A stretch of 64,000 nucleotides of DNA from Torpedo marmorata (lineage: Eukaryota): contig OZ360222.1 of NCBI GenBank assembly GCA_977017645.1, positions 107,322,001-107,386,000 of the forward strand, written 5' to 3'. A program made the position numbers and the translations under genes. Below are positions 7,778-64,000 of the stretch, in pieces. The notes beneath the pieces are model-generated. The model worked only from the letters and a program-made list of their open reading frames with translations. It did not search any database and was not told the DNA's origin. How positions within the stretch are numbered: the first letter of the stretch is position 1; each line of letters begins with the position of its first letter.

Positions 7778-9147
7778 CATAGGCGTATCTAGGGTATGGC
7801 AGCCAGGGCACATGTCCTGGGCTCCACTTGAAGGGGGGGCGCCACTGCCCACCAATCCTCGTAAGAGTTCAAAAACAAGCTCGTATGTGCCGCGTTGAGT
7901 GTAGGCGTTGTTGACACCCTCTGCCGTTCAATGTCGGTTCCCTTGACCCGTCTGTACCTTGGAGGCGCCAGTTCAGCGTCCCCTTCGCTGCCGGTGTCCT
8001 TGCTCACCCACCGAAACCCGTACACATTCTGCTGTGGGCTTCCTATTAAACCCAGCACTGAGCATTCTCCGAGGGGCGTGGGCTCCAGCACCAATCCTCC
8101 TTTAACGATGATGTAAAAAAATAAATTCTACGCAGTGTGCGCAGCGAGCTCGGCAAGCAAGCAGCTGAATGTTGGCAATTTGTGGCGCGCACACACCGGC
8201 AGAGCCTGGAAATTATTCACCCCCCCCACCCCCGCCCCAAGCCCAACTCCCCCAACATCCCTTGTCTGACTTATTTCAAACAGAATACCTTTCAGACCAG
8301 CGAGAGAATAATTGGCGTTAGTACTTTTACTATAACCGCCGAGGGGAGGGTTTGGAGTCAGGCGTTGGGAGCTCCGATCCAAACCCTCCTCTCAGCCTAC
8401 ACCGGAGCTCCCGACACCTGACTCCGATCCATCCCCTCAGCCTACAGCACACGCACACCGGACTCCGGTGTGCGTGTGCGGTAGTAGGCCGAGGGGAGGG
8501 TTCGGAGTCGGCGTCGGGAGCTCAGGTGTGCGCCTGTAGGCCGACTGCCGAGGGGAGGGTTCGGAGTCGGGTGTCGGGAGCTCTGGTCACCGGAACTCCC
8601 GACTCCGAACCCTCCCCTCGGCCTACACCGAAGCTCACGACGTCTGACTCCAAACCCTCCCCTGTCCCCTGTTGGAGCCAGGGCTGAGGAGGGTGTGCGC
8701 TGAAAGATGAGTTTGAACGTGGGCTTCGGCATCTTCCTGCTTCTCTCCCACCGGATGCTTGGCGCTGAGAGTCACCTTTCACTGAAGGTAAGAGAAGGCC
8801 ACTCCACCTTTACCTTAGGCCGCTCCACTCTGGCCCGGGGAATACCGCTCGCTACTTTCATTCAGCGAATGCTGGCCTTTGAAGTAGGCAGAGAGTTTTT
8901 TTAAATTGAAACGACTGTCGTGTTTTTTAAGGTGCAGATTATTTTCCAATATCTCAATATATCCAACACAACGTTGGATATGACTATTTTAGGGTTCTAC
9001 AGCGGCGAGGACAGGTAGGGAAGGTGAAGTGGATGGTGTGGCGGCGGCGAGGGATGGTTGCGGGGTGAAGGGTTGAAGTAAGTTTTAACAGGGGGGGTGC
9101 AATTTCAGTGCTTGCCATAGGTGCTATTTTCCCTAGATATGCCACTG
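7778..9147. mobile_element. Non-autonomous hAT-superfamily DNA transposon (1370 bp)
   Basis: Imperfect 17-bp TIRs CATAGGCGTATCTAGGG / CCCTAGATATGCCACTG. Perfect 8-bp TSD GCTAACCA (7770-7777, 9148-9155). No transposase ORF. Confidence 0.9.
8338..8664. repeat. Cluster of direct and inverted ~37-bp GC-rich repeats inside the hAT element
   Basis: GCCGAGGGGAGGGTTYGGAGTCRG at 8338, 8488 and 8547. Reverse-complement copies at ~8379-8430, ~8598-8622 and ~8645-8664. Confidence 0.85.
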
Positions 9148-9576
9148 GCTAACCAATATACTAACCATGTGTTAGCCTCTTACTTGGAGTGACCAATGGA
9201 TTCCCAAAAGAGAATTCCAGCATCACAGGAAGAAATAACCCGTGCAAGTGAAATTAGGGCCACCTTTGTGGCCATATGTCAGCACTCACACATACATATT
9301 TGCTGATAAAAGAGTTAAACATTGACTTTTGCATCAGACAATCCCATTACCAAGAGATTTTGATGGAGGAGAATGGGGACACAGGTTTGTGAATGTTTGT
9401 CTCAGTGCAATGCTGCCCCATAATCTTAGTATGCCATGCCAGTAAAGAAGTGGAGTGGTCACATCTCATTGGAACCCAATTGGCTGTACCTACCAACCAA
9501 TGACCAACCAGATCCACAGATATTATTAGAAAAGCAATGGAAGGAGACCAAAAGATTAGCACAAGATCGATTAGAG

Positions 9577-9753
9577 CAGGGGTGGCCAACCTTTTAATTT
9601 TTAATTTAGACATACAGCACGGTCACAGGCCATTTCGGCCCACGAGTCCGTGCCGCCCAATTAACCTACACCCCCGGTACGTTCTCGTGGGCCGAAATGG
9701 CCTGTTACCGTGCTGTATGTCTAAATTAAAAATTAAAAGGTTGGCCACCCCTG
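9577..9753. mobile_element. Hairpin MITE with hAT (Charlie-like) termini and SINE-derived arms, copy 1
   Basis: ~70-bp near-perfect inverted arms starting CAGGGGTGGCCAACCTTTT. Perfect 8-bp TSD GATTAGAG (9569-9576, 9754-9761). Arms and loop match the SINE 3' end. Confidence 0.92.
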
Positions 9754-12700: not shown

Positions 12701-12879
12701 GCAATATTCCCTAAGCATTTCATCATATCTGTGATGATGTTAACCAATTAAAATGTGAAATTGCTAATCTTATTCATCACTCTGTGAATTGACTATCGTA
12801 TAGGAGATGAGAGGATCTCCTCTTCTTTCCCTCATGCCTTGCTTCTCCACCCCCACCCACTCCATCTCACCAAATATAC

Positions 12880-13298
12880 CAGCAGATAAATACAACTTGT
12901 GGCACAGCATTTAGGTAAGTAAAATCCTAGGATCAAATCTTTTTTCTATGCTGAATGAGTGGCTTTCAACAATGGTTAGAATTGGGCCTCTGCAAGTGGT
13001 CTAAGCATACCAGGCTAGGTAAGAGGAGAGAAACTCGCCCAGGACTTCTACTCCTGATTGCTAGCCAGGACCCTGCCTGCAACGATGGTACAAGCAATGG
13101 CTGGAAGAGGACACGATCAGGCTAGGCTGTGATGTTCTCACTGTCAAACAGCCTACCAGCATTGATTGTCTAGGTTTACACATGAAGAATGGCCACACAG
13201 ACGAGGTAGTGCAGGGTTGCCGACATTCATTGATCCGTATCCACTGTGAGTCACTGCCTCCCGGAGATGAAGGGAAAGAAGAGAAAAATTGAAAGAAG
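12880..13298 (+). mobile_element. Ancient AmnSINE2-like SINE relic
   Basis: Colinear blocks CTCCTGATTGCTAGCCAG, GATCAGGCTAGGCTGTGATG, TGTCTAGGTTTACACATGAAGAATGGCCAC and a purine-rich tail resemble the AmnSINE2 consensus as I recall it. Not aligned computationally. Confidence 0.65.
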
Positions 13299-14169
13299 AG
13301 GTTAAAAAGACACCAAGTAACGTGAATAGTTTTAAAAATCAACACAAACATTGAGCAGCAAAGGAAGACAAGGTAGAATGGTAAGGAAACAAAAACACCA
13401 TTTGTACTTGGAAATCATCAAGGCTTTGGACTAAGAATTAGCAACAGGAATAAATAAAAAAATTATGTGCTTTTAGAATCTCAATCTCACCCCATCCCAC
13501 AACAATTTTACACTTTTAACGTATAAAGTACCCAGGATAGGCCAGCAGCACTTCATCACCAAACTCAATTTGTCAGGGAACAAATGAGATTATATTGTGT
13601 AATTAAGCACCAACTTGTATGTCATTTGAACATTCTATCAAATAAAAGGGAAATTTGCTGAGTTTTATGTCATAAAAGCAAAAAAATTACAATTTTTAAA
13701 AAAACATGAAACAAAATTTCAAAATTAACATCTTTTATAAATACCATGCAACAATTTCTTCCTTGTGTAAAAATTCACTCTTTGTAGAGCAAATGCATAA
13801 TGGAAGCTCTATTTAAATTTATAACCATGCCATTCTCTAGTGCAGTATTAATGCCATCACAGCATTGACGTGAAGGAAAAGAAGCACAGTATTGTATAGC
13901 AAACAACATATTGAAAATAGTTATTTCAAACATGCCATTGAGTAAGGAAAGGTTTGTTGTTCAACAAAGTTCTCTAAATTTATCTAGGTCATATAAACAA
14001 TGGAATTATTGTATGGAACATATGGATGAGTTGAAGATAACCACTTTTCTCTGTCTCGCTTGTAATAATATACGGTACATATAATTTAGCTCATTTTTTT
14101 TAAAGTAAATGTTTGCAATGCAAGATGTATTTTTCCTCATGAAATGACATTTACAATTTTGCTACAGAG

Positions 14170-15165
14170 TAGATGAAATGTTTGGATTGGCAACCAGTAA
14201 CTGATAGGTTCCACAGGGATGAATGAATGAGGCCCCAACATTCATTCATATTATGAATGAAATCTCATTTTATTTAATCTATACTGATGACTTGGATGAA
14301 GGGACTGGAGTCAAATTTGCAGGTGGGTTAGCAATTTTGTGAGGAGGGACACAAATAGGTTGGGACTGGGCAAGAAGCTGACAGATGGAATATAATCTGG
14401 GAAAATGTGACCTTACCCACTTTGCAAGGAAGACTGTAAAAGCAAATTATTATTTAAATGGAGTGAGACCACAAGATTTTGCAATGCACGGGGAACTGGG
14501 GACCCCGGTACATGAAACACAAAGGGTTGACGTGCAGGTACAGCAAATATTTGGGAAGGCTAATGGAACATTGGGCTTTATTGCAAGGGATATGGAGTGT
14601 AAAAGTAGGTAAAATTTGATACAACTTTGCAGGGTGGGGATGAGACCCCACCTGGAGTACTGTACACAGCTTTGATTTCCATATTTATGAAAGGATGTAC
14701 AGTACTCATAATGGAGGCAGTGCAGAACATGTTCATTAGGTTGATTCCTGGCATGAAGGGGGTTGAAGATAGTATGGCATCCTATGGCATAGGTGCTCTG
14801 TGGTTAGTAAGGGATTACTTAAGGCGGTATGTGAGTGGGGAAAAAAGGTTGAGAACCACTGCCCTAGTGGGTGTGCCTGGAACAAGGTGCACAGTCTCTG
14901 AATAAGTGGTTGCACGATGTAAGTGGGAGGCGAGGTGGAATTTCTTCTCACAGAAGGTCATGAATCTTTGTAAATCTCTACCTTTGAAAAGAGTGGATAT
15001 GGAGTCATTAAGTACGTTCACAGCCAAGACTGACACTTTAAACCAGTAGGTCAAGGATGATGAGGAGAGAGTGGGGAAAGTGGCATTAAGGCCAGGAGTG
15101 AATGAGCCATGTCCTTGGCAGGAAAAGGTTCTGGGTGCCAACTAACTTACTCCTATTTCTGATGG
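14170..15165 (+). mobile_element. Degraded CR1/HER1-like LINE 3' region
   Basis: Decayed ORF2 C-terminal motifs (W.MEYNLGKC, KANGTLGFIAR, RPHLEYC, FFSQKVMNL) and a CR1-type 3' end with TACTCCTATTTCT. Confidence 0.8.
14770..14862. mobile_element. Right end of a hAT/Charlie-like MITE within the CR1
   Basis: Terminus AAAGGTTGAGAACCACTG (reverse complement CAGTGGTTCTCAACC) followed by CCCTAG. The left TIR is not visible. Confidence 0.6.
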
Positions 15166-17544
15166 AATTCTATACTTTTGCATGGCTCACAATTAAAGGA
15201 AAATGTTTTGCAAAGTAATCAATAAGGCAACATATTTTGATTTTCTGAAAGGGAAATGAATTATTTTTCAATAAAATCTTGAAATAAATTTCAGATATGT
15301 GCTGTAACAGGTGATCATTTACCTGATTACAATATTTTTTTTCTCTCCAACAGATCTTCTAACATTTGGATGAGGTAGGTTGAAATGATCAGATGGCTAG
15401 TGGCACAATTTCTAGGTGCCCCATCAAAATACTGCAGGGTGTAGAACAGGGAGCCCCAATGTTGACTGAGAAGCCAGCACTGACACACATTTGAGATCTA
15501 GGGCGTTACCCCAGATGGAAAAAATAATGCATAGACAACTCACCACAGACCATTTGTTCACGGCACTAATAGGCATCTAAAGAACAGCGTTGGGTTAAAC
15601 CTGTCAGCCATCTACCTGCGTGGAAGTGAATGATGCATGTCCTTGGAAGACAAAAAGGGAGCCCAAGCCAAAAAAAATTACAAATTAGATAATTCATGTG
15701 AACACACTTGTGATTCTTCTTGCCAAAATAAATTTTAATGTGAAGAATAATTTTGACTTGATTCCCTTTGGAATTTTAATTGATTTAGTTGATTTTCTGT
15801 ATTGGAAAAGGAAAAAAAGAATCACAATGTCTCTAAAAATTAATAGGGGAAAATTAGCCTGATTTCCTCCTGTAAACACGAATGCAAATGCTGGCCACTG
15901 GTTATGTTCATTTCCAAATATTCAGCTTCCCAATGAAATTGAACAAGTGCCAGCGAGTTCAACTGGTGACCAAAATGCTCTCATGTGTTCAGAGCTGGTG
16001 ACCATAAATTAATTCCTTCCCACTATTTGTCATTTACTACTGAATGTTGAATAATAGTGCAATAAAGTTTTCTGCCACATTGCTTGAAACACCCAGGATA
16101 TGTTGCCAAAATGCATGAAACATAATTTTGTGAAGGTCAAATAGTTAGCCCAATAAATATATTTTTCTATTGAAGTTAAACAGATCATTTCTATTTTACA
16201 CTACATCAAGTCTCCAAATAAATGCTTCATTAATTACTAATGAAAAGTAGTTTAGACCAAGTGTCATTAAAAGGAAATATCAAGCTTCAAACAGTTTCTA
16301 TTTAATACACAGATCATTATCCATTACCTACTTCCCAGCAGTGAATTATTTTCATCATTTTATTTACATAGTGAAAGGAAGTTCCAGTTTGAAGATCCTT
16401 CATTCATGGCACAGCAGTCATTAACTGCTTTGAAGAGATTAACAGATTTTTGCCACCAGGAAGCTGAAATATTTGCCTTTTCTAATTTTAGTAAAGAGAA
16501 AAAAAATGACAGGAATAAAAAGTGTTATTCTACTTTTTAGTTAATATTAGGATCTCAGCCCTGACGAAATGGAAGTTTTCACAACAACTATCTAAAATCT
16601 ATGTAACGATTAGAGAGGAAGCCTTTTAAGGAATGCTGGAACAGTGGTTGACCATCCTGTGCCTCAACATTTCATTTAATTAGATCAAATCTGAATGCTA
16701 CCTCAACTCCATTCATCAGAGCACTCCTTTATGCCCTTGTCCATCAGAAACTCACCAATCTTGCCACTGAAATGTTCAACTGACCTCTTCTCAATGGATT
16801 TTTATTTTGAGTGGAGGAGAGTGTGGAGGTGGGAAGAGACAGCAGTGGTACACTGGAATTTTAGTTCCAGATTCCAAGCCCTTGGTGAAGGGAAAGTGAT
16901 TCTTAACATTTCCTTTGAGTCACCTCGTTCACAGAAAATATTGGCTCTACATTTAATCATTTAACTCTTTCAGTTCAGTTAAATCACTTCCATATTCAAA
17001 GGATATAGCACTGGTCTCTGGAATCTTGACTCTTAATTCCTCCCATAACTATACTGTTGTATCTGAAGTGTGAAGTGCCGAGAAGTTAGCAAAGTACTAG
17101 ATGAGGTCTATCCTGGGCTTTATGTCACTGTAATTCCATCTCTTTCTATTTCAGTCTTTTAGGGATAAGGCCAATTACATCCTGTTTTGGTAAAAGGTCA
17201 TTAACCTAAAATGTCCACTGCTTCTTTCTCTCTCCGCTGTTGTCTGAACCACCGAGCATTTCTTGTTTTATTTTAAACTCCATTAACCTTTTGAATTATT
17301 TTTTGTACCTATTCACAATGTTGTATTAATTACAAAATATGGATTGCTAAAACTTTGTTCCTATTGTTTCTCGTGTTCAATTTAAAGATTGCACTGACCT
17401 ATATTTCAAGAGAACAAGCTGGGAAAACCACACTGAATGCAGCTTTCTGCAGTTTTGGTGTCTTGTTGAACTTTAGTGCCCTGGTCCAGTCCTTCTCTCA
17501 CCTACACATTCTGCTCACTAAACATGAAGATCCAGTTGTAAAAC

Positions 17545-25312: not shown

Positions 25313-25469
25313 NNNNNNNNNNNNNNNNNNNNNNNNNNNNNNNNNNNNNNNNNNNNNNNNNNNNNNNNNNNNNNNNNNNNNNNNNNNNNNNNNNNNNNNN
25401 NNNNNNNNNNNNNNNNNNNNNNNNNNNNNNNNNNNNNNNNNNNNNNNNNNNNNNNNNNNNNNNNNNNNN
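25313..25469. other. Assembly gap (157 N)
   Basis: Run of N characters. Confidence 1.
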
Positions 25470-27197: not shown

Positions 27198-29212
27198 CTA
27201 ATCAGTTTTTATATCATTATTTAACAAGCGCTCACTGTGCCATTTTTTCATGTGTTTCTCGAGGGTACTATACACGCTAAAAGGCATCTGACAAATTTCA
27301 CATTTGTAAACGTCTTTCCCCACCTGACCGTGCGTTTTCATGTGTCGTGTAAGCTTGCTACTCTGGGCACAGGCGTAGTTGCACAGGTCACATTTGTATG
27401 GTCTCTCGCCCGTGTGGCTTCTCCGGTGGACTGTGAGATTGCTGCAGTTCTTGAAGATTTTACCGCAAAATTCACACGTGTCACTTCGCTTGCCCTCCTT
27501 GGAGCTAGGCCGCCCTGGACCAGGTCCAGTGATGTGTGGAGTGCTGCCGCCACTTCCTGTGCCGCTCCGACCTGAGATCCCACCGTCCATCTCACCTGGG
27601 GGAGTGGAAAAGCGTAAACTTCCATTTTCTGAAGAGTGCTCGGATGAAGTTGCAAAAGGCGATTGTCTGGAGTCTCCAAAGCTGAGGAACGGGTCTTTCA
27701 TCTGCCGTGAGGCAGCGTAACCAGCAAGCCACTGTGAATAAACATTATCTGTGGGAGCCAAAGGTGCTGAGGGCAGGTCAAAGTCTTTTTCAAGCTTAAT
27801 GCGTTTGGAAAAAGGGCTGAGAGATGTCGGGCTAACCAATATAGGCTTTTTTGATATGCCCCCAGAAGCCGATTCACCTGGTGAGGAACCTCTTCCATTG
27901 ACTGTACCATCATCTGTGCGATCAGATTCACCAGCAACTGAGTCCTCATCATAAGTGTCTCTGTGAACTTCTGCTTCAGAAGAGTGATGAGTCCGCTTGT
28001 GTTTATCCACCAAGACTTGATGGAAGGCCTCACCGTAATGCTGCATGGTGTTCATAGTAATGTTGTGCATTACTTCAGGGAGAGAGCTCTTCTCCTCCAC
28101 AGGCCGTGAGCTGTTCTCATGATGACGCCCGCCCTCAAGACTGACGCCAAAGGCAAATTCAGACCTATTTTCATTCTCGGGTTCCTCCTCTTCCTCCTCT
28201 TCTTCCTCCTCTTCTTCTTCCTCTTCCTCCTCTTCCTCTTCCTCCTCCCCATTTTCTGGAATCATGTTGGCATCAGTTTCGCTCTTGTACTTGGCTACCA
28301 CTGACTTGAGAGCACTGCTGGCACTGCCAACAAGGTCACTTGTCCCAGGTTCGGGAGAGCTTGCAGTGGAGAGTCCATCATCTGACTTGACTGTCATGGG
28401 CGATGACTTGTGCAGATGTGTTTTCATGTGCCTCTTTAATTTGCTGGCCTGAGTGCAGGCGTGATCACAGAGGTGGCACTTGTACGGTTTCTCACCAGTG
28501 TGGCTTCGGCGGTGCACAATCAAGTTGCTCTGAAACTTAAAGGTTTTCCCACAGAATTCACAGGACTTGGACTTGAGAACACTCTGTGCAGGAGGGGCTG
28601 TGGACTGGAGGGGTGGGAGGGGCGGTGTGCTGAGAAATGGAGATTTGTTACTTGATTGGAATGGTTGCAATAGCCTTTGCATGGGACTTGGCCGGTTTGG
28701 TGACAATGGAGGAGTGGAGGTATTGCCAGCTAATTCCCTAAGTCTTCTGGAGAAATCCATTGATGGCGGCTCAATCGGTATGGAGTTAAGACGCAGTACC
28801 CTGTCAAAGGCACTGTTATGATGTGCTGCTGCCATAGCCATCTCCTCAACACTCAGACGATCCATTCGATGAGGGTCCAGGTGATGCCGGGGCGGAGGGC
28901 TAAACAAGGGAGGTGTAGGGGGAAAGCGGCCTTCTACAAGCCCTGGTGTTTCCCGAGAGACAGGCCCAGACATTCTCAGTAGGTTGAAAGGACTATTATC
29001 TGCCACGTGAAGTCCATGAAGGGGGGGTTGAGGGCCACAATCTGCCCCAAGTCCCGAAGGAATCCCAACCCGTGGCGTCAAGGGACTTCCATGCTCAGTC
29101 TCCAAATAAATTCGGAATCCATGGGTGTTCTGGGCATGTTGGAGGAGAAACCATGCGCTGTTGAATGGCTGTTTGCAAGTTGTGCAAGTGTAACTGCTCG
29201 GCTCATCCTTCC
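27198..29212 (-). CDS. BCL11A: BCL11A (CTIP1/EVI9) large terminal coding exon, six C2H2 zinc fingers, XL-type C-terminus
   Basis: Acceptor TTTTCTCTTGCAG|GG (phase 1) before [18 protein letters not shown]1, ZF2-3 (KSCEFCGK...), a 22-Glu acidic run, then ZF4-6. The end [10 protein letters not shown] fits BCL11A (RVLNNDIKTE) and not BCL11B. Upstream exons are not recognised in the window. Confidence 0.97.
28182..28247 (-). repeat. (GAR)22 poly-glutamate coding repeat
   Basis: 22 consecutive GAA/GAG codons counted from the sequence. Confidence 0.97.
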
Positions 29213-30069
29213 CTGCAAGAGAAAACAAATAATGCCAACATGAAGACCTCTGCAAACCACACTCTGCCACTATCTTGCCACTTAAAACACCTATTTTAAA
29301 AGAAAAGGTTTTAAAGAAACTTGCACCCCAAATTTAATGGAAACTGTAAAGGTGCCAGGAGGCAACTTGAATGACTGAGTCAATTTCTCTTCATTCTAAG
29401 TGACCTAATTGATAAGAGATCTACAGCCTCACAAACCCTGTTGCAATGGTCAGTTAGGACACATGTGCATGTTTACTTACATTGTTTCCAAGATTCTTTT
29501 AGGTGTGTCTCTGTGAATCAGCAAAACAAAGCAGGATGTAAAGTACACTTCATCCTGAATTTTATATCATTACTTTAACTAGGAGTTGATTTCTCTTGGT
29601 AACAAATTTAAAGTACTCTTATAATTAAAGAGGAATCAATACATGAACATTTCCCATTAATCTGGTCAAACCACACAGGCATTGCTCACCTACTTAAAAA
29701 CCTTGCTTGCAATGGTAATTTTTCTTCTGTTTGGTAAATAAAGTCACTCTTGACCACACATTTCTCTATCAAACCTTCTTGGCAGTTTGCTACCAATCTT
29801 TTTTTTTAAATTGAGCTAAGTCCTAAAACGTGAATCAGACAGTAAAAAAAAAGATTTTTTCCATTAAGACAAGGTGGAGACGCCAGTTAAAAAGGCTTTC
29901 AACGGGGACAAGCATATTCACAAATGCAAATCCTCAACTTAATTCCCTACATTATCAATGCAAACCCACCCTGCTCTGCCCAGTTTGAGAATGGTCAACA
30001 GATGAGATGACATAACTATTTATCCTTGGTTTCCTCCACTTCAAATTTATGGTTAAGAATTGGTTCAAG

Positions 30070-32203
30070 ACAACAAGACAAGGATGTCCATTGTCACCTG
30101 CTTTATTTGTATTGGCAATAGAACCGTTGGCGGAAATGATTAGGAAAGATATTAATATAAATGGGATAAAAGTAGGTGTAGAAGAGCATAAAATTAGTTT
30201 GTTTGCAGATGATGTATTAATATATATGACAAAGTCTATTAAATCACTTCAACAATTAGATAAAATATTGAGGGATTATGGTGAAATATCTGGATATAAA
30301 ATTAATTCGGATAAAAGTGAGATAATGGCTTTATCTCAAGGAGACTATACTAAATGTAAAGAAGTTACAAAATTTAAATGGGCTAAAGAAGCTATTAAAT
30401 ATTTGGGAGTTAAAGTGGATACAAAGTTAGAAAATTTATATAAATTAAATTACATACCTTTATTTCAGAAAATAAAGAAGGATTTGGATAATTGGAAAGA
30501 TTTACCCATAACTTTAATGGGAAGAGTGAATTGTATTAAAATGAATATTTTTCCAAAAGTTCAATATCTTTTTCAATCTATACCTTTTGGTATTCCTCAA
30601 AAATTTTTTAAAGATTTAAAAATTATTATTAGAAAGTTTTTATGGAAAGGAAAATTGGCAAGAGTAAGTATGGATAAATTAACTTGGGAATACGAAATGG
30701 GTGGATTACAACTCCCTAATTTTCAATATTATTATAAGGCAGCACAATTAAAATTTATAAATGAACTATTTGATTTAACTAAAAATACGGCTTGGATTAA
30801 TATAGAATTGAGTAATATAGGAGAAAGAAATAAGGAAGATATTATTTATAAATGGAATTCTAAATTATTATTGATTAAAAAGAAAAAGTCACCGATTATT
30901 AAACATCTATTGGAAATTTGGAATCAATTAGATAATGAAATAGGACGAAAAGGATCAATTTCTTTAAACATGCCATTATATCAGAATTTATTATTACCAT
31001 TTTCTATTGATAATCAATTTTTAAAATTATGGTATCAAAAAGGAATTAAGAAGATTAAAGATTGTTTTGAGGCAGGAAGATTTGTTACTTTTTCTAGATT
31101 GAAAGAAAAATTTGGAATAATGGACAATACAGTTTTGGCTTATTATCAAGTTAAAGGATTTTTAGTTGAGAAATTAGGGAATCAATTAATATCCCCTAGA
31201 CAAGATGGGTTAGAGTTATTAATTACTAATGGAAATGTTAACAAATTTATATCGCAAATGTATAAATTACTTCAGAAAAAAATGTTTAAAGTAGGACTAC
31301 ATAAATCTAGATTAAATTGGGAATCAGATCTAAACACTAGTATAGATGAACAACACTGGAAAGAACTATGTAAACTGAGTATGACTAAGATTATTAATGT
31401 TAGATATAGATTAGTACAATATAATTTTTTTCATCAATTATATATAACACCTAAAAAATTAAAGAAATTCAATTCGGCATTGTCAGATATGTGTTTTAGA
31501 TGTAAAGATGAAATAGGTTCTTTTGTACATTGTACATGGTTGTGTTTGAAAATTAAAAGTTTTTGGTCTAAAGTCAAGGAATTTTTAGATAGAATTCTTA
31601 ATATTACGATTCCAATGGACCCTATGATATTTCTGTTTGGAGATATTAAAAAAATTAGTATTAGAAATAGATTGAATATGTACCAAATAGAATTTTTACG
31701 AATTGTGTTAGCAATTTCAAAAAAATGTATTGCTATTACTTGGAAATCAGATTTAGATTTAAATTTGGATAGATTACATGCAGAGTTACGCTCGTGTATA
31801 CCATTGGAAAAAATTACGTATAATTTACGAGACAAATATCATTTCTTTCTGAAAATTTGGAGCCCATACATGAGAATTATGGGTATGAATTAATTCTCTA
31901 GAAGTTAGTACCGCTGACAAAGTAACCTCCAATATACAAGTAGAGTTAGCTTGAAATAGTTTTTCTCCTCATACTAACACTAACTTTCTTAACTTTATTA
32001 TTCAATCTTTTTCTTTTCTTTTAATTAACATTTTTATACTCTATTTTTTTCTTTTTATTAGATAGCGTGGGAGGGTTGGGGAGGGGAGGGTGGGAAGGGG
32101 GGGTGGTAATATATCACATGTATTTTCAATAATATACTATTTTTTTGATATATGTATTTTGTGATTTTAAAAAAAATTAAATAAAATTATTAAAAAAAAA
32201 AAA
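30070..32203 (+). mobile_element. 5'-truncated L1/Tx1-clade LINE, same family as 5318-7514, antisense in the BCL11A intron
   Basis: Uninterrupted ORF2 3' half to 31893 (RQGCPLSP, LFADD, CFRC..H..W.C), AATAAA and poly(A). 15-bp TSD AAGAATTGGTTCAAG at 30055-30069 and 32204-32218. TT/AAGA target site. Confidence 0.96.
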
Positions 32204-39770: not shown

Positions 39771-39920
39771 TAAATACCTATCGTTACTAACACCATATAC
39801 CATCTTTTGGCCCACAGCCTTCTACGTTGTAGCATGTCAGGTGCTCGCATTCAGAATGTTTGCGAGAGAACCCCTCAGAGAGTATCCCTCAATCTCAACT
39901 GCTATTACAAAAATCTAGCC

Positions 39921-40205
39921 TCTCCTGTCTCCACCATCCTCTCCTGTCTCCACCATCCTCTCCTGTCTCCACCATCCTCTCCTGTTTCCACCATCCTCTC
40001 CTGTCTCCACCATCCTCTCCTGTCTCCACCATCCTCTCCTGTCTCCACCATCCTCTCCTGTCTCCACCATCCTCTCCTGTCTCCACCATCCTCTCCTGTT
40101 TCCACCATCCTCTCCTGTCTCCACCATCCTCTCCTGTCTCCACCATCCTCTCCTGTCTCCACCATCCTCTCCTGTCTCCACCATCCTCTCCTGTCTCCAC
40201 CATCC
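39921..40205. repeat. 19-bp minisatellite (TCTCCTGTCTCCACCATCC)x15
   Basis: 285 bp equals 15 units. Units 4 and 10 carry the same C>T variant. Confidence 0.97.
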
Positions 40206-41609
40206 TCTCTGGCAGCCTGTTCCAGATTTCAACCACTCTTTGAATGCAAAAAAATTCTTCCTCAAATCTCCTCCAAATGTCTTAAACACAAGTTCTCTGG
40301 CTATCGACACTACTGCAAACAGAAAATATTTCTCAATATTTATGCTATCTATACCCTTCTTAATTTTGTTGACCTCACTCAAATTATCTCTCAATTTCCT
40401 CTGCTATAAAAAAAATCTAGCCTCTCCAGTTTCTCCTCATTGCTGAAATGCTATCCAGGCAACATCCTGGGGAATCCTCTCTGCAGCCACTCCAAAGCAG
40501 TCATGTCCTTCCGATAGGGCAGCAAGTAGAACTGGACACAGTACTCCACCTGGGACCAACTACTATTTAATACAAGTTGTCCCACAACTTCCTTGATCTT
40601 ATATACCAGGTTCTATCTAATAATGGCAAATATCCTGTATGCTTTTTTTTCACCACCTTATCTATTTGTGCTGCTGCCTTTAGATGTCCATGGACGTACA
40701 CCAAGGTTGATCAGTTCCTCATTACTTCCCAGGGACTTACCACTCAAGTCTCTACACAAGTCCTGTTGCTCTTCCCAAAATGAAGGACTAAATTCCACCT
40801 GCCATTGCTTTGCACCTCTTATGAACTCATCAATATAACTCAATAGACACAGAATGTTACTGTACACAAGAAACAGAAAGAGACCCAGCACCATTCCCTG
40901 TGACTGGTTACAGGCTTCCAATCACAAAACAAACTTCTACCTCTTATCACCAAGCCAATTTCAGATCCAATTGGTCGTTTTCCTGGATCCCATGGGCCCT
41001 TGCATTTTGGACGTTTTCCATGTAGGACCTTGTCAAAGGCCTTACTGAAATCCATGTAAACTATATCAACTGCCTTACCCTCACTGACACACTTATTCAC
41101 CTCCCTGAAAAATTCAGTCAAGCTCGTCAAATAGGGTTTCCCCTTAACAATTCCGCATTTCCAAGTCCATATTTATCCTGTCCCTCAGATTTTATTTTCA
41201 ATGGTTTCCCTACCACTGACATAAAATTCACAGACCTATAATTACCTTGCTTATCTTCTTGAGTAAAGATGCCACATTTGCTGTCCTCTTGTCATCTGGC
41301 ACTTCAGGTATCATCAGAAAAGATTTGAACATTTCTGTCAGGAGCCCAGTAATCACCACCCTTGTCTCCCATTGCCATCTGAGATACATTTCATCAAGCC
41401 CTGCTAGCTTATTCATCTTTAAGTCTGCTATGACATCAAATAGCTCTTCCTTTTTTTAATGCTAACTTGTTTTAAAATTTCACTGTTCTCATTCCTGAAT
41501 TCGCCAAACATCACATCATGTCCATTTCCCAGGTGAATATGCTGAGAACTATTCATTTAGGACCTCACCTGTGTCCTATGGCTCCTCAGATTGGTTCTTT
41601 GGTCCTTCC

Positions 41610-41790
41610 TTAATTTAGGCATACAGCACGGTAACAGGCCCTTCTGGCCCACACGTCCGTGCCGCTCAAATACAGCAATTAACCAACAATCGCCGTACAT
41701 TTTTTTGAGATTGGAAAAACCCACACAGGTCATGGGGAGAATGTACAAACTCCTTTCAGACTGCGCTGGATTTGAACCCGGCTAACTGGT
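41610..41790 (-). mobile_element. V-SINE/HE1-like SINE, partial
   Basis: Reverse tail ATACAGCACGGTAACAGGCC and B box (GGATTTGAACCC on plus). Confidence 0.8.
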
Positions 41791-42130
41791 TGTTTCCTTG
41801 CGCTTAATAAAACACTTTTCGGGATTTTCCTGAATCTTGGCCACCAATACTACTCTGTGACCTCTTATTTTCCTCCGAATTGCTTTTGTTTTTAAAGTTT
41901 CACACAATATATTCTGTTCTCCTGCATCTTTTATTGATCCAATCCTCAATATCCCCTGACCTCCTTGGTTCCTTGAACTTGTTGGCTTACCTTTCACCCT
42001 TCCAGGAACATATTGGCCCTGAATTTTCACAACGTCACTTTTGATTTCTTCCAATTAGTTGCATATGGACTTAGCTGAAAGTTGCTGGTCACAACCCACT
42101 TTAATCAGCTCCTGTGCTATCTCATTAGGA

Positions 42131-42238
42131 CACGTACCAGGGGTGTAGGTTAATTGGGTGCAAATTGGGCGGCACGGACTCGTGGGCCGAAATAGCCTGT
42201 TACCGTGCTGTATGTCTAAATTTTTTTTAAAATTAAAA
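42131..42238 (+). mobile_element. 5'-truncated SINE (3' part only)
   Basis: CGTACCAGGGGTGTAGGTTAATTGGG...GGGCCGAAATAGCCTGTTACCGTGCTGTATGTCTAAA. Confidence 0.85.
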
Positions 42239-42538
42239 TCAGCCTTCTCCTAAATCAGGACCTTAATTTCCATTCTATCTTGTCCTGCCCCATAACCACC
42301 TGAAAACCTGCAAGATTCTGGTCACTATCAAGTCAACATCCTTTCCATTTACTTGGCTACATTCCCAAAGATTAGATCAAGTACTGTCCCTTCTCTAGTA
42401 GGACTAACCAATATTGACTCAAAGCTTTCCAGATGCACTTTAAATATTTCACCTCCTGTAAGCCTTTCACACCAAAGTGTTCCCAGAAGTTAAAATGTCC
42501 TACCACTGTTCTCCTATTGTTTTTGCACTTTAGATTAA

Positions 42539-42771
42539 CAGGGGTGGCCAACCTTTTAATTTTTAATTTAGACATACAGCACGGTAACAGGCCATTTAGA
42601 CATACAGCACGGTAACAGGCCATTTCGGCCCACGAGTACGTACCGGGGGTGTAGGTTAATTGGGCGGCACAGACTCGTGGGCCGAAATGGCCTGTTACCG
42701 TGCTGTATGTCTAAATGGCCTGTTACCGTGCTGTATGTCTAAATTAAAAATTAAAAGGTTGGCCACCCCTG
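42539..42771. mobile_element. Hairpin MITE with hAT termini and SINE-derived arms, copy 2
   Basis: Same termini as 9577-9753 with the loop in the opposite orientation. A 28-bp tandem duplication is present in both arms. Flanks GATTAA(CA) / GATTAGCA form an imperfect TSD. Confidence 0.9.
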
Positions 42772-43698
42772 GATTAGCATATATTTTATAATAATCCATA
42801 AAGGTTCCAAGAAGGCTCTCAGCAACCACTTTCCTCATGAGGCCAATGCAAAACACAATCCAGTCAATAATCTCAAGCAAGAGGGATCATAATAAGTCTC
42901 CTTACCAACTATTCCATTAAATATGATTCTGCCTCCATTTCCTTATATCTATATACTGCCAATGTACATCAATCTTCTGCACTTCTATCTCTTGGAACTT
43001 ACTGCTATGAACAGATTTTGTAACTAGATTTTGGAAAACCCACCTCACTGCTAAACTCTGCCCTAAAAGGAAAATAATTCCTGAAAATTAGATGCCCTGG
43101 CAGCAAGTAGATTTTGCTATAATCCCTACCAGTGAAAGTACCTTTGGTAAACCATCTTACTTACTTATTGCAATACTGGAGGAGGGCATTCAGCCCAATG
43201 GGTCAATGCTGTCTCCCAGAAGAACAAACCAATCAGTCCCATTCTCCCTTTCTTACTTCACTGTACACCTGTAAATTATCTCCTCTCATACGTCCATCCA
43301 CTTCCCCTTTGATTATTTTACCACTTACTGGGGTAATTTACAGGTGGATATTTTTTAAATTATTCATCCAAGGGATGTGGACTTCACAGGCTGAGCTAAC
43401 ATTTAATTGCCCACCCCTATTTGCCCTTGAGAAGGTGGTGGTGAGCTTCCTTCTTGTACCACTGCAGTCCTTGAGCTGTGCAGTTTGGGAGAGAGGTTCC
43501 AGGATTTAGACTCAGCAATGGTGAAGACACAGCCATATATTTCTCAGTCAGGGTGGTGTACAACTTGGAGAGCAACTTCCAGATGGTGGTGTTCTCATTT
43601 ATTTTTGCCGCTCTTGTCCTTCTAGCTGGCAGAGGTTGTGGGATTGGAAGGTGTTACCTAAGCAGTCTTGGTGAGTTGCTGCACTGTATCCTGTAGAT

Positions 43699-44795
43699 CA
43701 GGGTTTCCCAAACTGGGTTCCGTGGAAAAGAGTAAGGGTTCCGTGGAAGAGTGACAGGGAGTAATAATGTGATACCTGTTTTTCTTTAATTTACTTATTT
43801 CTTCTGTCCTTAATTCAATTTGTTTCTGGGACGGCAGCAAACTGTACACTCCACCCAAAAAAAAAGGCGTCATGAGGCCTGACGTCAGCAGTGCAGACGT
43901 CAGGCCTGCGCATCATTTTTAACCAATGAGAATCCGAATTCTTCTGGCGCGAAGCCGGCGAAGGAGCTGACCATATTGTGCCCAACATTAAGAAGATCTG
44001 TGACGGCAACAAATAATTTCAACTTGGAGAATGGTAAGTTTATTTATTTTCTTACTATACTTTTTTATATACCAGGTATTGCAATAGTGGCGCACTTCTT
44101 TTTAATTATTTTTAATGGGGCGGCATGGTTGGCGTAGTGGCTAGCGCAACGCCTTTACAGCACCAGCAATCGGGACCGGGGTTCGAATCCCGCGCTGTCT
44201 GTAAGGAGTTCTCCCCCTGTCTGCGTGGGTTTTCCCCGGGGGCTCCAGTTTCCTCCCACTGTTCGAAATGTACCGGGGGTGTAGGTTAATTGGGTGTAAA
44301 TTGGGCGGCATGGACTCGTGGGCCGAAATGGCCTGTTACCGTGCTGTATGTGCAAATTTTTTAAAATGTAATCATACTTACCTCAAAAAATCTGAAAGAA
44401 TCATCAGAAAATTATCGAATATTACAATTTCTTAGTAATACAGAATTATTAAGGGATAAATAAAAACTAAACTTAATTTCTTTGAGAATAAATAAATACA
44501 CGTAAGTATAAAAAAGGATTCCACTTTTTCATCACTTTGTATATTTACACATGCATTATTTAAATTTAAAAGTGAAAAGATTAAATCCCAAATCAACCGT
44601 TTCAACCTTTGTTTGAACACAAGGTAAATTATTTTATTTATCTCTTATTATTATCATTACTTGCGGGGGTGTTTCTCATTATTGTAATAACGAGGGAGCA
44701 CTGTACTTCCGCAAACTGTACATGAAGATTAGGGTTCCGCCATTTCGAAGTGCTCCCTAAAAGGGTTTCATGAGCTAAAAGTTTGGGAAACCCTG
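43699..44795. mobile_element. Non-autonomous hAT (Charlie-like) element containing a SINE
   Basis: Perfect 16-bp TIR CAGGGTTTCCCAAACT. Perfect 8-bp TSD CTGTAGAT (43691-43698, 44796-44803). Confidence 0.93.
44117..44365 (+). mobile_element. Full-length young V-SINE/HE1-like SINE
   Basis: A box TGGCGTAGTGG, B box GGTTCGAATCC, V-like central domain and CR1-type tail. Confidence 0.92.
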
Positions 44796-45884
44796 CTGTA
44801 GATGGTACAAACGGCTGCCTTGGTAGCAGAGTGAGTGAATGGTTGTGGATGAGATGCCTATCAAGCAGGTTGCTATGACCTGCATGGTGTCAAATTTCCT
44901 GAGAGCTGCTGAAGCTGCACTAATCTAGGCAAGTGGAGAGTGACTTGACTTGAGCTTGTGGATGGTGGATAGGGTTTGGGCAGTTAGAAAATGAATTACA
45001 AGCCTCAGGATTCCAAGCCTTTGCCCTGCTCTCGTAGCCACGTTGTATAGATGGCTACTCTAGTTCAGTTTCTGGTCATTCAGTGATGGTAATGCCATTG
45101 AATTTCAGTGGTGATTTATTTTTGTTGGATATCGTCATTGTTTGGCCCATGTGATGTAAATATTACTCGCCCAGCATTAACCTACCAGAACATCTTTGGG
45201 ATGCACGAGGTACCAAAGCACCCAGTGGAAATCTACATGGTCATGTGAAGACCCTACAAAGTCCATACAGACTCCCAAGGTCAGGTCTGAACCCAGATTC
45301 TTGATACTGTGAGACAGCAGCACTAACTATGCAGCCTTTCTCTTAAGCTTGGCTGTAATAAAGAATAACGACGAGAGGGGCCTCCCCATTTTTTTCCATC
45401 TCCATTCTTTCTCCACATTCCTCTTTCATTTCTTTTAAGACTATAAGCTTCCACTCCTAGCCCACACCTAAGAAACCTTCTTCTCTGTCATACTAGAGAA
45501 AGTGAGGGAAGCATCACAGCCTTCCAATGTCCTGATCCAACGCTTAGACAAAGATTCCCTTACCAGTAGAAGTAATGAGCAGAAATAGTGACCAAGTTTT
45601 CCCCAACCCAGCCCAATACCATGATCAATTGCAGCATGTTCTTCTACAACCCACTGACAAACATCATCCAGTTTGAAGCACTTTTACTTGGTTCTTTAAT
45701 ACGTGTAAAAGCCACATGCAAACTATGCTTGATCTCCGATTAAGAGTTTGCCATGATTTGGAATTTGATAGCAAAGCAGAATTTTTTCTTTTAATTTTAG
45801 CAAGGTAAGTAATACAAGATTCATAGCAGGCCACTTGCCCCAGCAAGTTGGCAGTAACCATCAACCAACAACTTCACCCAGATT

Positions 45885-45975
45885 CTGCCACTCACAAGGT
45901 GCAATTTACAATAATCAATTAACCTACGAACCCACGCATCACTGGGATGTGGGAGGAAAACGGAGTACCCGAGGT
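45885..45975 (-). mobile_element. Old SINE central-domain fragment
   Basis: CAATTAACCTAC...GGGATGTGGGAGGAAAACGGAGTACCCG. Confidence 0.65.
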
Positions 45976-46824
45976 TCTGGAGTTTACAATATATTGGGAT
46001 TGATTAATTAAGGAAATTGGCCTGAGATTGCCAAACCAGAGTTAAAGACTTTCAAACACAAGTTAAATTCATTGCAAACCTTTTGTGCTGGCCTAAAAAA
46101 TATAACACTGCAAACTGGCTCTGGCCCCAGAACTGCCCTTTTGAAGTCTTTGGAGAAAGTTTTAAAATTATTATTTTTTTGTTCAAAGAAACTTTCTGCA
46201 CATTTCAAAAGATTTTATATATTTATTAAAAATGATTTTGTGCTCTCTTGTAAATAGAAAATCAGTCCAAATAGCATTTTACTTATTTTCAGTACATTAA
46301 AGATCTCAACAAAACCATTAGAAGTCCTTAATTTATTCTGATAAACATAGATAAACCTGGCTACCACTCTTAAATATGACAGGGATTTTTTAAAAATTCA
46401 AAATGGTAAAAATAATCATGTTCTAAAGCTTTGCCTGATTATGCAGTTTCATAGATGCTTTTACATTTGTGACAATGCCAATGAATTTGAGTGGAAACCT
46501 GAACTAGAACTATGGAAAACCAGCAGAATTCTTTTGTGCCCAGCTTGCCAGCAAAATAGTCCAATTTCCTTTCTTAGAACTGTAAAGAAAAGCAAAGGTG
46601 GGGGGATAATCAGAGTCTGAAATTCCCCTTGTGTGTGTTGGTGCACTTTGTGCTTTCTGCAAAGCCAAGATGTTTCCTGTTCAAGACCAAAGTTGTTGGT
46701 TATGACAATTTGATTGAGAATCATATTTAACTTACTTGAATTACCATTCTTTCAAAATGAAAATAACACAATTCAATATGGAGAGAACTCTAGATGGCTC
46801 TGCCCTAATGATGTCATCAAATGG

Positions 46825-48095
46825 CCTCAGCACCCTCTTCCCTCTAACTGGATCCATGACTTCCTGTCTAACAGATCGCAATCAGTGAAGATGGGTAACA
46901 ACATCTCCTCCATGATCACACTCAGCACTGGCGCTCCTCAAGGATGAACTTAGTCTCCTCCTACAAGCCCTCTATACCCATGACTGTACAGCTAAATACT
47001 GTTCCATCTCGATCTTCAAATTTGCTGACAACACCACAGAAGGGGGCCGGGTATCAAATAACGATGAGATGGAATCCTGGAAAGAGACTGAAAGTCTGGT
47101 GCCAAGATAACAACTTCTCTTTCAACCTCAGTTAAATGAAGGAAATGATCATTGACTTCAGAAGCGAAGACAGAATATACAAACCTGTCCATAATAATGG
47201 CAGCTAAGTGGAAGGAGCAGATAGCTTCAAGTTCTCAGAAATAAGGCAGCACGGTTAACGCAACGCTGTTACAGCGGCAGCGATCAGGACCAGGGTTCGA
47301 ATCCCGCGCTGTCTGTAAGGAGTTTGTACGTCCTCCCCGTGTCTGCGTGGGTTTTCCCCGGAGGCTCCGGTTTCCTCCCACCCTCCAAAACGTACCGGGG
47401 GTTGCAGGTCAATTGGGTGTGATTGGGCGGCACGGGCTCGTGGGCCGAAATGGCCTGTTACCGTGCTGTATGTCTAAATTTAAAAATAACCTGACATGGG
47501 ACAAAAACACTGCCACGACAGTCAAGAAAGCACACCAACGCCTCTATTTTCATGGAAGACAAAGGAAGTTCGGCATGTCTCCCTTGTCCTTCAACAACTT
47601 CTTCAGGAGCACCATTGAAAGCATACTTACTGGATGCATCACAGCGTGGTATGGGAGCTGCTCGGCTCAAGATTGGAAAACTCTTCAGATGGTGGTGATT
47701 GAAGCTCAGAACATAGCACAAACTTCCCTCCCCTCCATGGACTGCATCTACATCTCCCGCTGCCTAGGAAAGGCAGCCAACATATTGAAAGACCCATCAC
47801 ATCGTGGACACACACTGTTCTCCTTGCTCTCATCACAGAGAGTGTGAAAGCAAACACCAACAGATTTAAAGGCAGTTTCATCCCCGCAGCCATCAGGTCC
47901 TGAATGAACCCCGTAAATGTCCTATCATGCTGTCCTTGTTGGTACTAATTTATCATTCTTTCATTGCAGTCCTATGCTCTGTAAATTGTGCTCATTACGC
48001 GATTGTATAAATGTTGGAGATAATTTGTTAGTCTGCTCACAGAAAAACCCTTCTCACTGTACTAGGTACAACGTGACAGATAAACTTAAATATTG
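46825..48095 (+). mobile_element. Degraded Rex1/Babar-like LINE 3' half
   Basis: [64 protein letters not shown]. Frameshifted and paralogous to 1-955. Confidence 0.88.
47245..47483 (+). mobile_element. Young V-SINE/HE1-like SINE inserted in Rex1
   Basis: B box GGTTCGAATCC, central domain and tail. Possible short TSD AAATAA. Confidence 0.9.
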
Positions 48096-61197: not shown

Positions 61198-64000
61198 CCT
61201 CCCACCCACAAAGAAAATTTTGGTCTGCAAGAACAAAATTTTGGAAAGTAATTGAGGTGTCACAATATAAACAAAATCTACAATGTTCATCCACAAATAC
61301 AAAATATGAACTATTTTCATTGATAAAGTTTAACATTTAGAAAGACAATCAGCAATTACATTATCTTTCCCTTTTATATGTGTGATTACCAAATTATATA
61401 CTTGCAAAATTAGTCTCCAATTCAACAACCGTCGATTCTTATTTTTCATTTTACAAAGAAAAACCAATGGATTATGGTCAGTATACACTATGAGTGGTTT
61501 TTGAGCTGTACAGGTATACACATCAAAGTGTTGTAGAGCCAACACAAGAGCCAACAACTCTTTTTCTATGGTTGAATAATTCCTTTGATGATCATTGAAC
61601 TTCTTCGAGAAGTAGGATACCGGATGGTCAATGTCCTCTTCGTTCTTCTTCTGTAACAGCACCGCACCCACAGCTTCATCGCTGGCATCCACGGCTAAAG
61701 AAAACGACTGTTCTAAATTAGGTGACTTAAGCACAGGTTGGTGGCATAACGTGGCTTTCAATTTGACAAATGCTTCCTGACAACCTGTTGACATACAAAT
61801 TTTTCTTTCTTTCTAAGCAAATTTGTGAGATGGAGCGCAAGATCAGCAAAGTTTTTACTGAACTTGCGGTAGTAGCCAATCATTCCCAGGAACCTCCTCA
61901 GAGTTTTCTTACTAGTTGGAACAGGGAACTCGGAAATAGTCACAACCTTTGCCTCTACTGGCGCCAACTTCCCCTGTCCTACTACATAACTCAGAGAATT
62001 AACAGTCCCATGACCCTCTCTGAAACTGGTTTTATCTGTCTCCTCCTTACCCCTGTCAATAACCAGCATCTCTGGTAAATGTTCAGTCCCTTTTTGAGGC
62101 ACCTGTTCAAAATACGGCTTAATCATATTCACATGACAGACCTGTGTGTCTCGTCTGCGATTAGGTGTTTCTATGACATAGGTGACATCATTAATTTTTG
62201 ACTTAACTCTATCGGGTCCTGAAAATCTATTTGAATGGATGGGAAACAGAACTAATACGTTCTCACCAGGTTTAAAAGTTCTCATCTTCGCCTTTCGATC
62301 ATACCAAACCTTCATTCTCCGTTGAGTGGCCTTTAAATTCTCCTTTGCCATCTCACAAGCCCTATGCAATCGATCCTTAAATTTGGAAACATAATCTAAC
62401 AGATTTAAATGCACATCACGATTAATCCACTGTTCTTTTAATAATCTTAAAAGACCTCTCACCTCATGTCCGAAAACTAACTCAAATGGACTAAAACCAA
62501 GTGAGTCTTGGACAGACTCCCTCGCTGCAAATAACAACAAATGAACCCCCTCATCCCAATCCTTTTCCTTTTCACAACAATAAGTTCTAATCATGTTCTT
62601 CAAAGTCGAATGGAACCTCTCCAAGGCCCCTTGACTTTCTGGATGGTATGCAGAGGATACAATCTGTTTAACTCCCAGTCCATCAACCACTTGCTGGAAA
62701 ACGCCTGACATGAAATTACTGCCCTGATCTGATTGAATTTCCCTTGGCAAACCTACCAAGGTGAAAAACTTTACCATAGCCTTTACAAATGTCTTTGCTT
62801 TAATGTTTCTCAGAGGAATGGCCTCTGGAAATCTGGTGGCTGCACACATAATTGTTAACAAATACTCATTCCCCGCTTTGGTTTTGGGCAATGGGCCAAC
62901 AGAGTCCACAATTACTCTCGAGAAAGGCTCACTGAAAGCAGGGATAGGTTGCAAGGGTGCCACCGGGGGACCCTGATTACGTTTACCCACCACCTGACAA
63001 GAGTGACAGGCCCGGCAAAAGCTTACAACCTCTCTTCTCAAACTGGGCCAATAAAATTGTTTCATTATCTTCCTTATAGTTTTCTTCACCCCAAGATGAC
63101 CACCTAAGGGTGTACTATGAGCCAAAGTTATTATTGCATCCCTATATACTTTAGGGAACACAACCTGCTGCACTACTGCCCATTCTTCATTGGCAGGAAC
63201 ATCACATGGTCTCCACTTTCTCATCAACACCCCATCTTTTTCATAATAACCTACTGGAACCTTCTTAATCTCCTCTTCAGAGAGAACCTTATCCCTCACC
63301 TCAGCAAGATCAGGATCGTCCTTTTGCCTTGCTATTAACTCCTGTCGGGATAGTGACAAATCTGTGCCTTTAGGTGTCTTATCAGTGGATGGGTGTAACA
63401 TAGGAGATTGCTCAACCTTTTCCAGGTTTTCTTGATTTTATCACTGTCTTTTTCTTTCACCATGTTATTTTCCTCTGCCTTTTCTACAGTGACATTTTTC
63501 TTAGACATGGCCCTGGTTATGGCACATGCCGGATAAATATCAGAGTCTTTCTCTGACTTATCAATGACTGGCTTAGTGGTCATTCGCACTGCAGGAACTA
63601 CTTTACCCTTGGCCAAGTCATTGCCTAACAACAGTGAGACTCCTTCTACTGGCAACTCTGATCTCACTCCTATTATAACTGGTCCTTCCACCAAGTCTGA
63701 GTCCAATTCTATTTTGTGCAAAGGAATGGACTCAACTTCACCACCAATTCCTTTAACTAAATTTATGTCACCGGTGTCAGTAGCTTCACAAATTTCCAAG
63801 ACACTATCTAACACAAGTGACTGAGCAGCTCCAGTATCTCGCAAGATTTTCACTGGAACTTGTTTTGATCCTGCCTTAACTGAAACAAAACCATCAGTCA
63901 CAAAAGGTTTAAATACATCTTTAACTTTGTCAGTAAATTTATCTCCTTCCTGGGTGTTATGCATCTCCTCACTCTGAATACAAGCATTAGGTGTTGCATC
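60337..64000 (-). mobile_element. Gmr1-like Ty3/Gypsy LTR retrotransposon, internally deleted, continues beyond the window
   Basis: Protease ILRDTGA (63335..63964). Integrase H..GGHLG..C..C and IVDSVGP/SDQG/GALER (61758..63401). RT C-terminal FLGMIGYYRKF. Gypsy-type RNase H VDASD..GAVL/YSTIEKELLA/YTDHNPL (61330..61794). Frameshifts between the pieces. Confidence 0.93.

Follow-up and report, generated by a model that had tools for sequence, protein, structure and literature searches.

A 28-nt duplication mirrored in both arms of a SINE-derived, hAT-type hairpin MITE in an assembled vertebrate genome

In the 64-kb stretch of DNA analysed here (the window), one copy of a short palindromic transposon carries the same 28-nt tandem duplication in both of its arms. 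This mirrored duplication is real in the assembly and probably real in the genome too. We consider it likely that a single duplication became fixed in the two arms at a time when they were paired with each other within one molecule. The element, copy 2, is laid out as follows:

42533–42538, plus strand: left target-site copy of copy 2, GATTAA, 2 nt shorter than the right one
42539–42771, no strand assigned: copy 2, palindromic non-autonomous hAT-type MITE; 233 nt, that is, 177 + 2 x 28
42539–42557, plus strand: left terminus, a hAT/Charlie-like TIR with a T4 run at its end
42558–42565, minus strand: A/T-rich SINE 3′ tail remnant in the left arm, aligned with free SINE tails
42566–42593, plus strand: first 28-nt unit of the left arm
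42594–42621, plus strand: second 28-nt unit of the left arm, followed by the 4-nt ATTT microhomology (42622–42625)
42622–42637, plus strand: inner left arm, up to the limit of perfect symmetry
42638–42672, plus strand: asymmetric centre, 35 nt, a 5′-truncated SINE body
42639–42671, minus strand: 7-bp stem (42639–42645 pairs with 42665–42671) with a 19-nt loop; putative fold-back priming site
42673–42688, minus strand: inner right arm
42689–42716, minus strand: inner 28-nt unit of the right arm, the SINE 3′ tail at its original position
42717–42744, minus strand: outer 28-nt unit of the right arm
42745–42771, minus strand: SINE A-rich tail and right TIR (42753–42771)
42772–42779, plus strand: putative 8-bp right TSD of copy 2, GATTAGCA, assigned by analogy with copy 1

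The left and right arms of copy 2 are identical at 99 of 99 nucleotides counted from each end. On the plus strand, copies of the 28-nt unit begin at 42566 and 42594, and exact reverse complements of it at 42689 and 42717. TRF returns two period-28 runs with a 100% match, 42566–42625 and 42685–42744, each comprising 32 identical positions, namely, the 28 of the unit plus the 4-nt ATTT microhomology. Folded as a DNA hairpin, copy 2 reaches −133.5 kcal/mol (z = −25), and none of 200 shuffles was equally good. Throughout the 64-kb window, the only isolated exact two-copy tandems with a unit of 15 to 79 nt are the two of copy 2; the other 10 of the 12 rows printed all belong to one 19-nt array.

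A sibling with a single unit in each arm lies elsewhere in the window:

9569–9576, plus strand: left TSD of copy 1, identical to 9754–9761, GATTAGAG
9577–9753, no strand assigned: copy 1; 177 nt with a single unit in each arm and its centre oriented opposite to that of copy 2

The sequence-only reading had claimed both the mirrored duplication and this single-unit copy; the first is exact at the level of the assembly and lies where it was claimed to lie, and the second is borne out at 9577–9753. Once both extra units are removed from copy 2, the two copies differ at 3 of 177 positions, and an 11-nt deletion relative to the SINE is common to them, so they form one family. The arms of copy 1 differ from each other by two unmirrored substitutions, at 9624 and 9683, which argues that arm copying is episodic rather than continuous. 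The two full copies analysed thus offer one mirrored indel and two unmirrored substitutions, and the identity of 99 of 99 in copy 2 is weak evidence, its single substitution falling in the centre by chance with p = 0.20. At 9683, the last base of the arm, copy 1 has the letter of the free SINE, while the letter of copy 2 adds one pair to the palindrome. Copy 1 may here keep the older state, giving a second trace of arm correction. Seven public sequencing runs matched the element (contigs only; best share, 0.41), of which four, X1, X7, X2, and X6, were examined; the 9683 variant was not listed at 3% in any of these four.

All of the sequence inside the termini aligns with the 3′ portion of a SINE, free copies of which, near full-length ones among them, occur elsewhere in the window:

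47253–47490, plus strand: free donor SINE, near full-length, V-type
about 44139–44359, plus strand: further free SINE copy
about 1798–2021, minus strand: further free SINE copy
about 7538–7776, minus strand: further free SINE copy
about 41612–41779, minus strand: further free SINE copy
42132–42238, plus strand: free SINE with a 5′ truncation; its first base coincides with that of the element's SINE core (reference position 156)

The donor presumably resembles the HE1 SINE of cartilaginous fish, and a SINE of this type would suggest that the DNA comes from such a fish. ARAGORN predicted no gene and the Rfam tRNA model had no match in 41500–48000 when a tRNA-derived head with pol III boxes was sought, a search that a decayed head would escape. 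The V domain of the SINE was matched, by eye only, to MER6/Ac1 in the supplement of PMC6887750, and two motifs of the window occur 6 and 22 times in that MER6/V-SINE supplement; the available part of PMC5499810 does not cover the donor SINE. The centre of copy 2 is without 11 nt that the three closest free SINE copies possess in that region, the deletion falling after about 42661, between 7-nt direct repeats. At 42671, copy 2 has a private CpG transition; the other letter is dominant in run X1 and listed in all four runs. The truncated SINE at 42132–42238 lies 300 nt from copy 2 and is cut at the foot of the 7-bp stem, yet it keeps the 11 nt that the element lacks. Reverse transcription may tend to halt at this stem.

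Judged by these sequences, the 177-nt single-unit form is ancestral and the duplication derived. The eight unit-like matches found elsewhere in the window, in free SINE tails and in copy 1, are all single, but four of them, besides the arms of copy 1, have diverged at or near the microhomology, so that not all eight are fair controls. The 233-nt form was rejected as the ancestor because free SINE tails carry one unit. In the public data, among the 32 of 129,508 contig pieces listed, 31 lie within the element and 13 reach a junction; eight of these 13 have at least 6 further letters and stop at the junction, and none crosses it. These listed pieces are diverged copies from other loci, and none among them spans copy 2 or a duplication junction. 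Likewise, a 28-nt skip was seen in none of the 15 joints listed of 108. The listing favours the longest pieces (at least 66 nt within the element), so junction-only contigs could be missing from it. Such a contig would measure about 56 to 60 nt if the graph uses 31-mers. Because junction-only contigs are shorter than the pieces listed, the unspanned junctions are not evidence of absence.

How often would the same duplication arise twice? The background in the window is about one such duplication per 32 to 64 kb, which puts a second one in a given 71-nt arm at 0.1 to 0.2%, and one arm offers eight possible duplication events with at least 4 nt of microhomology. An independent mirror is thus estimated at about 1e-4, a value that a hotspot would raise. 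The sequence-only reading had called two independent identical duplications unlikely, in agreement with this estimate, and had proposed an arm-to-arm copy within a hairpin or cruciform; of that proposal, the part that calls for one event instead of two stands, while the intra-strand route is not singled out against copying from the sister chromatid or from another copy.

Three routes could have given both arms of copy 2 their identical 28-nt duplication at a microhomology, the state seen in the assembly. First, slippage could have been followed by fold-back copying on the nascent strand. Second, a looped-out unit in the stem could have been repaired with the longer arm as template. Third, a staggered break and fill-in inside the stem would duplicate both arms at once. 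All three fit the data equally, at the locus of copy 2 or in a parent copy alike. Pairing of the arms is the common core of these mechanisms; the arms were probably paired when the change was fixed, and the exact mirror, the shared breakpoints, and the strong hairpin speak for it. Staggered breaks are known to produce small tandem duplications in ordinary duplex DNA (PMC8355091), a route that we would extend to the hairpin stem, and template switching is reported both to make stems and to correct their pairing (PMC8794818). Against this reading stand the junctions left unspanned among the listed contigs, the unmirrored substitutions of copy 1, and the number of full copies, two. Moreover, the TIRs of one Galileo copy are often unequal in their internal repeat number (PMC3573991), so mirroring is no rule. 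A reciprocal out-of-register inversion was rejected by reasoning, because one arm would gain a duplication and the opposite arm suffer a deletion.

A bolder version, in which new copies pass through a self-paired hairpin intermediate and one arm is regenerated from the other during amplification, seems to us very unlikely. It would make variants mirrored at birth and unmirrored later, as in copies 2 and 1, respectively. If true, it would lend direct support to the hairpin model of MITE amplification alongside hAT transposase.

The main alternative is an artefact of assembly, which we regard as unlikely. In that case, only one arm of the true allele would have the duplication, which would have been written into the other by a graph walk with small k, as in gap filling, or by polishing with reads mapping to both arms. 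Up to k = 45, all k-mers of the assembled locus do occur in such a one-arm allele, none of the contig pieces listed spans a junction, and the window contains a gap of non-round length:

25313–25469: assembly gap, 157 N

This gap may point to a scaffolded short-read assembly. In contrast, the mirrored path is unsupported from k = 46 onward, and above k = 6 it is unreachable from a duplication-free allele, so that at least one junction must be present in the reads. Unique flanking sequence lies just 55 nt away from each junction. The assembly also preserves the arm asymmetry of copy 1, but that substitution is nearer the centre, where a smaller k suffices.

Alternatively, the second arm may have been rewritten between molecules: a break in one arm could be mended with the opposite arm of the sister chromatid as template, or a copy that already had the duplication could have converted both arms or given rise to copy 2, with no hairpin needed at the locus. 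TIR-to-TIR conversion by recombination is documented for the 23-bp TIRs of insertion sequences (PMC3004938), and conversion has been proposed for Mutator (PMC10401008) and Galileo (PMC3573991). The family also provides many templates, and the damaged left target site of copy 2 could be a trace of repair. Yet even with a 233-nt subfamily, the mirrored state had to originate once. No piece of such a subfamily is among those listed, although this is a weak objection, junction-only contigs being shorter than the listed pieces. Overall, we hold an intermolecular origin to be quite unlikely.

Highly improbable, in our judgement, is a single inter-strand template switch that leaves after the left unit, copies the opposite strand over the centre, and returns, with both switches out of register at ATTT, so that the units are duplicated and the centre is inverted. 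This one four-point event would produce exactly the observed layout, and loop inversion by such switching has been described (PMC8794818). However, at both switches a 4-nt match would have to prevail although more than 40 nt matched in register. Finally, two independent slippage duplications at one sequence-determined hotspot would use the same ATTT microhomology pair in both arms but are scarcely credible, as none of the eight other unit-like copies in the window (not all of them fair controls) and none of the eight informative contig pieces is duplicated, counts that alone bound the rate only to 17% per arm, while the window background gives the order of 1e-4.

Just inside the perfect arms of copy 1, past one mismatch, the centre offers 7 further pairs around a 19-nt loop; on the SINE-antisense strand of the copy 1 version, these are six Watson-Crick pairs and one G-T pair, and a stem as good arises in 0.19% of 200,000 shuffles (p = 0.0019). 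Both sides of the stem are SINE sequence, and it is already present in the free SINE: of three free copies tested, the one at 47390 adopts it as its minimum-energy fold, the loop being 30 nt, and in the other two, substitutions weaken it. In yeast foldback inversions, priming stems start from 4 bp, with a median loop of 36 nt (PMC7467729). Since a stem of this kind is the scar expected when a 3′ end primes on its own strand, the palindrome probably arose by fold-back priming. The earlier suggestion that the same kind of process turned a single SINE tail into a palindrome thereby gains independent evidence, in the form of a stem that pre-existed in the free SINE.

The best-pairing strand is the SINE-antisense one, which would be the strand that copies terminus and tail first and also the one that reverse transcription would produce if it started at the T run on the inner side of the TIR. 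The entire 177-nt layout would follow if this strand folded back while a SINE was inserting at a hAT end, or afterwards. In the scenario that we propose, a V-type SINE would first have inserted tail-first at the T run of the inner end of a hAT terminus. The SINE-antisense strand would then have folded back on the 7-bp SINE stem and, with itself as template, been lengthened across the tail and the terminus. The product would be the 177-nt element, which hAT transposase would have spread, leaving the 8-bp TSD that is observed. The only strongly truncated free SINE among the six found (42132–42238) starts at the first base of the element's core, a shared truncation base that hints at the same fold-back origin.

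By its TSD and terminus, the family is a non-autonomous hAT (Charlie-like) MITE, and the element would be a young transposon turned near-perfect hairpin. Its arms combine a V-type SINE tail with a terminus of 15 to 19 nt. The 19-nt terminus occurs at four places in the window, all of them ends of copies 1 and 2, and in none of 100 shuffles. Both copies start with CAGGG, in keeping with the hAT terminal motif YARNG, and by eye the terminus is similar to the Charlie-related hAT TIRs in Table 1 of PMC3014272. A perfect 8-bp TSD flanks one of the two copies; copy 2 fits only given a loss of 2 nt on the left, and its short left target site is presumably a 2-nt deletion. Compared with the consensus NYYTARRN / NTCTAGAN, both copies (n = 2) have the central TAG, and the departures from NYYTARRN are at position 2 in both and at position 7 in copy 2. 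The target sites of the two copies share their first 6 letters on the plus strand, though the centres are oppositely oriented, and the target 8-mer of copy 2 also occurs about 15 nt to the left of the TSD of copy 1. These shared letters reflect target preference or chance. The features of a MITE are all found: the element is short (177 or 233 nt) and non-coding, has TIRs and a TSD, and related sequence is abundant in public sequencing runs from several organisms.

The element-specific centre junction was recovered in 40 to 78 contigs per listed variant in runs X1, X7, and X2 and in 4 to 9 in X6; its coverage is good in organisms A, D, and B and thin in C. Summed-depth ratios are about 500 to 16,000 in X1 and 200 to 6,700 in X7, to be read as orders of magnitude, since the tool itself warns that summed depth is unsafe as a copy number. 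As a rough estimate, this suggests hundreds to thousands of copies in organisms A and D. Depth at the ends relative to the centre is 0.7 to 0.8 in A and D and 3.3 and 6.6 in B and C (runs X2 and X6), a hint that in the latter the same end is joined to other interiors; precursor or sister elements sharing that end may be commoner there. A 199-nt contig of run X1 (42772–42970; depth, 7; 2 differences) stops exactly at the first base outside copy 2. Since a graph branches in this way for a filled/empty heterozygote, the insertion is perhaps polymorphic, a weak hint from one contig. At the gathering threshold, no RNA family of Rfam matched the element, the best being mir-4529 with 49.2 bits against 88; a microRNA or other known RNA family was rejected on that subthreshold score. 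Collections of viral, metagenome, and prokaryote genomes held no further copies, collections that are uninformative for a vertebrate repeat.

The window contains a BCL11-type zinc-finger exon at 27198–29333 on the minus strand, which identifies the DNA as vertebrate. Its frame stays open for 711 codons and includes a long run of glutamates; the PDB entry matching it best is BCL11A (E = 2e-67). LINE and LTR fragments lie in the rest of the window. Copy 2 is located 13 kb away on the upstream side of this exon and is perhaps intronic, in which case its transcript would form a perfect double strand of 99 bp. The degraded sequence around it looks like a CR1 LINE. At about 43699 (43699–44090), there is a second hAT-like left end with a CAGGG start, a diverged 21-nt tandem (43715–43756), and an internal 16-nt palindrome (43875–43907); a matching right end was not found in 43600–44200. 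Two LINE copies of one family, at 5577–7523 (minus strand) and 30016–31893 (plus strand), are 5′-truncated and 84% identical over 1.8 kb; both have reverse-transcriptase frames open for more than 600 codons, and the start of the copy at 30016 lies about 700 nt upstream of the zinc-finger exon. A 19-nt minisatellite of 15.3 copies, 98% identical, occupies 39919–40209, and fragments of an LTR-retrotransposon pol with integrase domains lie at 61330–63824 on the minus strand.

How palindromic MITEs originate and why their arms are alike has so far been argued mostly from models. This family, a retroposon tail turned DNA transposon, could serve as a test system: its known donor gives the ancestral states, its asymmetric centre makes the arms distinguishable, its priming stem is visible, and its copies probably number in the hundreds to thousands. 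If mirrored and unmirrored variants were counted over these copies, the extent of arm-to-arm copying in the germline of a vertebrate would be measured, and copying at transposition could be told from later repair. The arm-to-arm process is known in kind, and a lone mirrored duplication is one more instance of it. As far as the literature searched goes, a hAT MITE made of a folded-back SINE tail whose priming scar can still be read is new. That search turned up neither a description of the family nor a short MITE with an indel mirrored in its arms; its scope did not extend to Repbase, Dfam, or the majority of subscription papers, and the family may already be in a catalogue.

Among known systems, Galileo and Tetris are alike in having tandem repeats within long TIRs, which grow by recruiting internal sequence (PMC3573991, PMC4079207), and one Galileo copy has two repeats in each TIR (PMC3573991). 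Their repeats, however, are about 210 to 220 bp, family-wide, and often unequal between TIRs, whereas here a first step of 28 nt is seen. Membership of the Foldback family was rejected, the tandem unit being present in one of two copies and in none of the eight informative contig pieces. Mutator homomorphs, in which one terminus is rewritten from the other and TIR symmetry is periodically regenerated (PMC10401008), and the TIR-to-TIR conversion of the insertion sequence ISWpi1, in which a terminus is rewritten from its partner (PMC3004938), are likewise similar. Those cases rest on sequence identity or on one base, whereas ours rests on a 28-nt indel that both 71-nt arms of a vertebrate element carry in mirror image. 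Template-switch mutations of hairpins resemble our case in that a stem is made in one event and pairing is restored (PMC8794818), but they concern RNA genes under selection, which here is neither needed nor shown.

With regard to the family as a whole, the Anolis elements hAT-HT1N1, hAT-HT2N, hAT-N1, and hAT-N5 share the 8-bp TSD with a central TAG, the YARNG motif, a similar TIR of 15 to 16 nt, and the lack of coding capacity; hAT-N1_AC is 135 bp long with TIRs of 57 bp, and hobo-N families contain captured SINE fragments (PMC3014272). Unlike in the Anolis hATs, the interior between the TIRs is here nearly all SINE tail, present twice and inverted. MER6/MER6A is also a DNA-transposon MITE with V-SINE sequence, but it is a Tc1/Mariner element of 865 bp with a TA TSD, a 24-bp TIR, and the V domain once (PMC6887750), whereas ours is of hAT type, has only the distal end of the V domain plus the tail, and forms a hairpin. 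MER53 is a single stem-loop of about 200 bp, although it is mariner-related with a TA TSD (PMC2996404), and for Angel an origin by fold-back of the nascent strand has been proposed in the model of Izsvak et al. (as summarised in PMC5172404). Compared with MER53 and Angel, the donor is known here; thus, both the priming stem and the ancestral states of the arms can be read.
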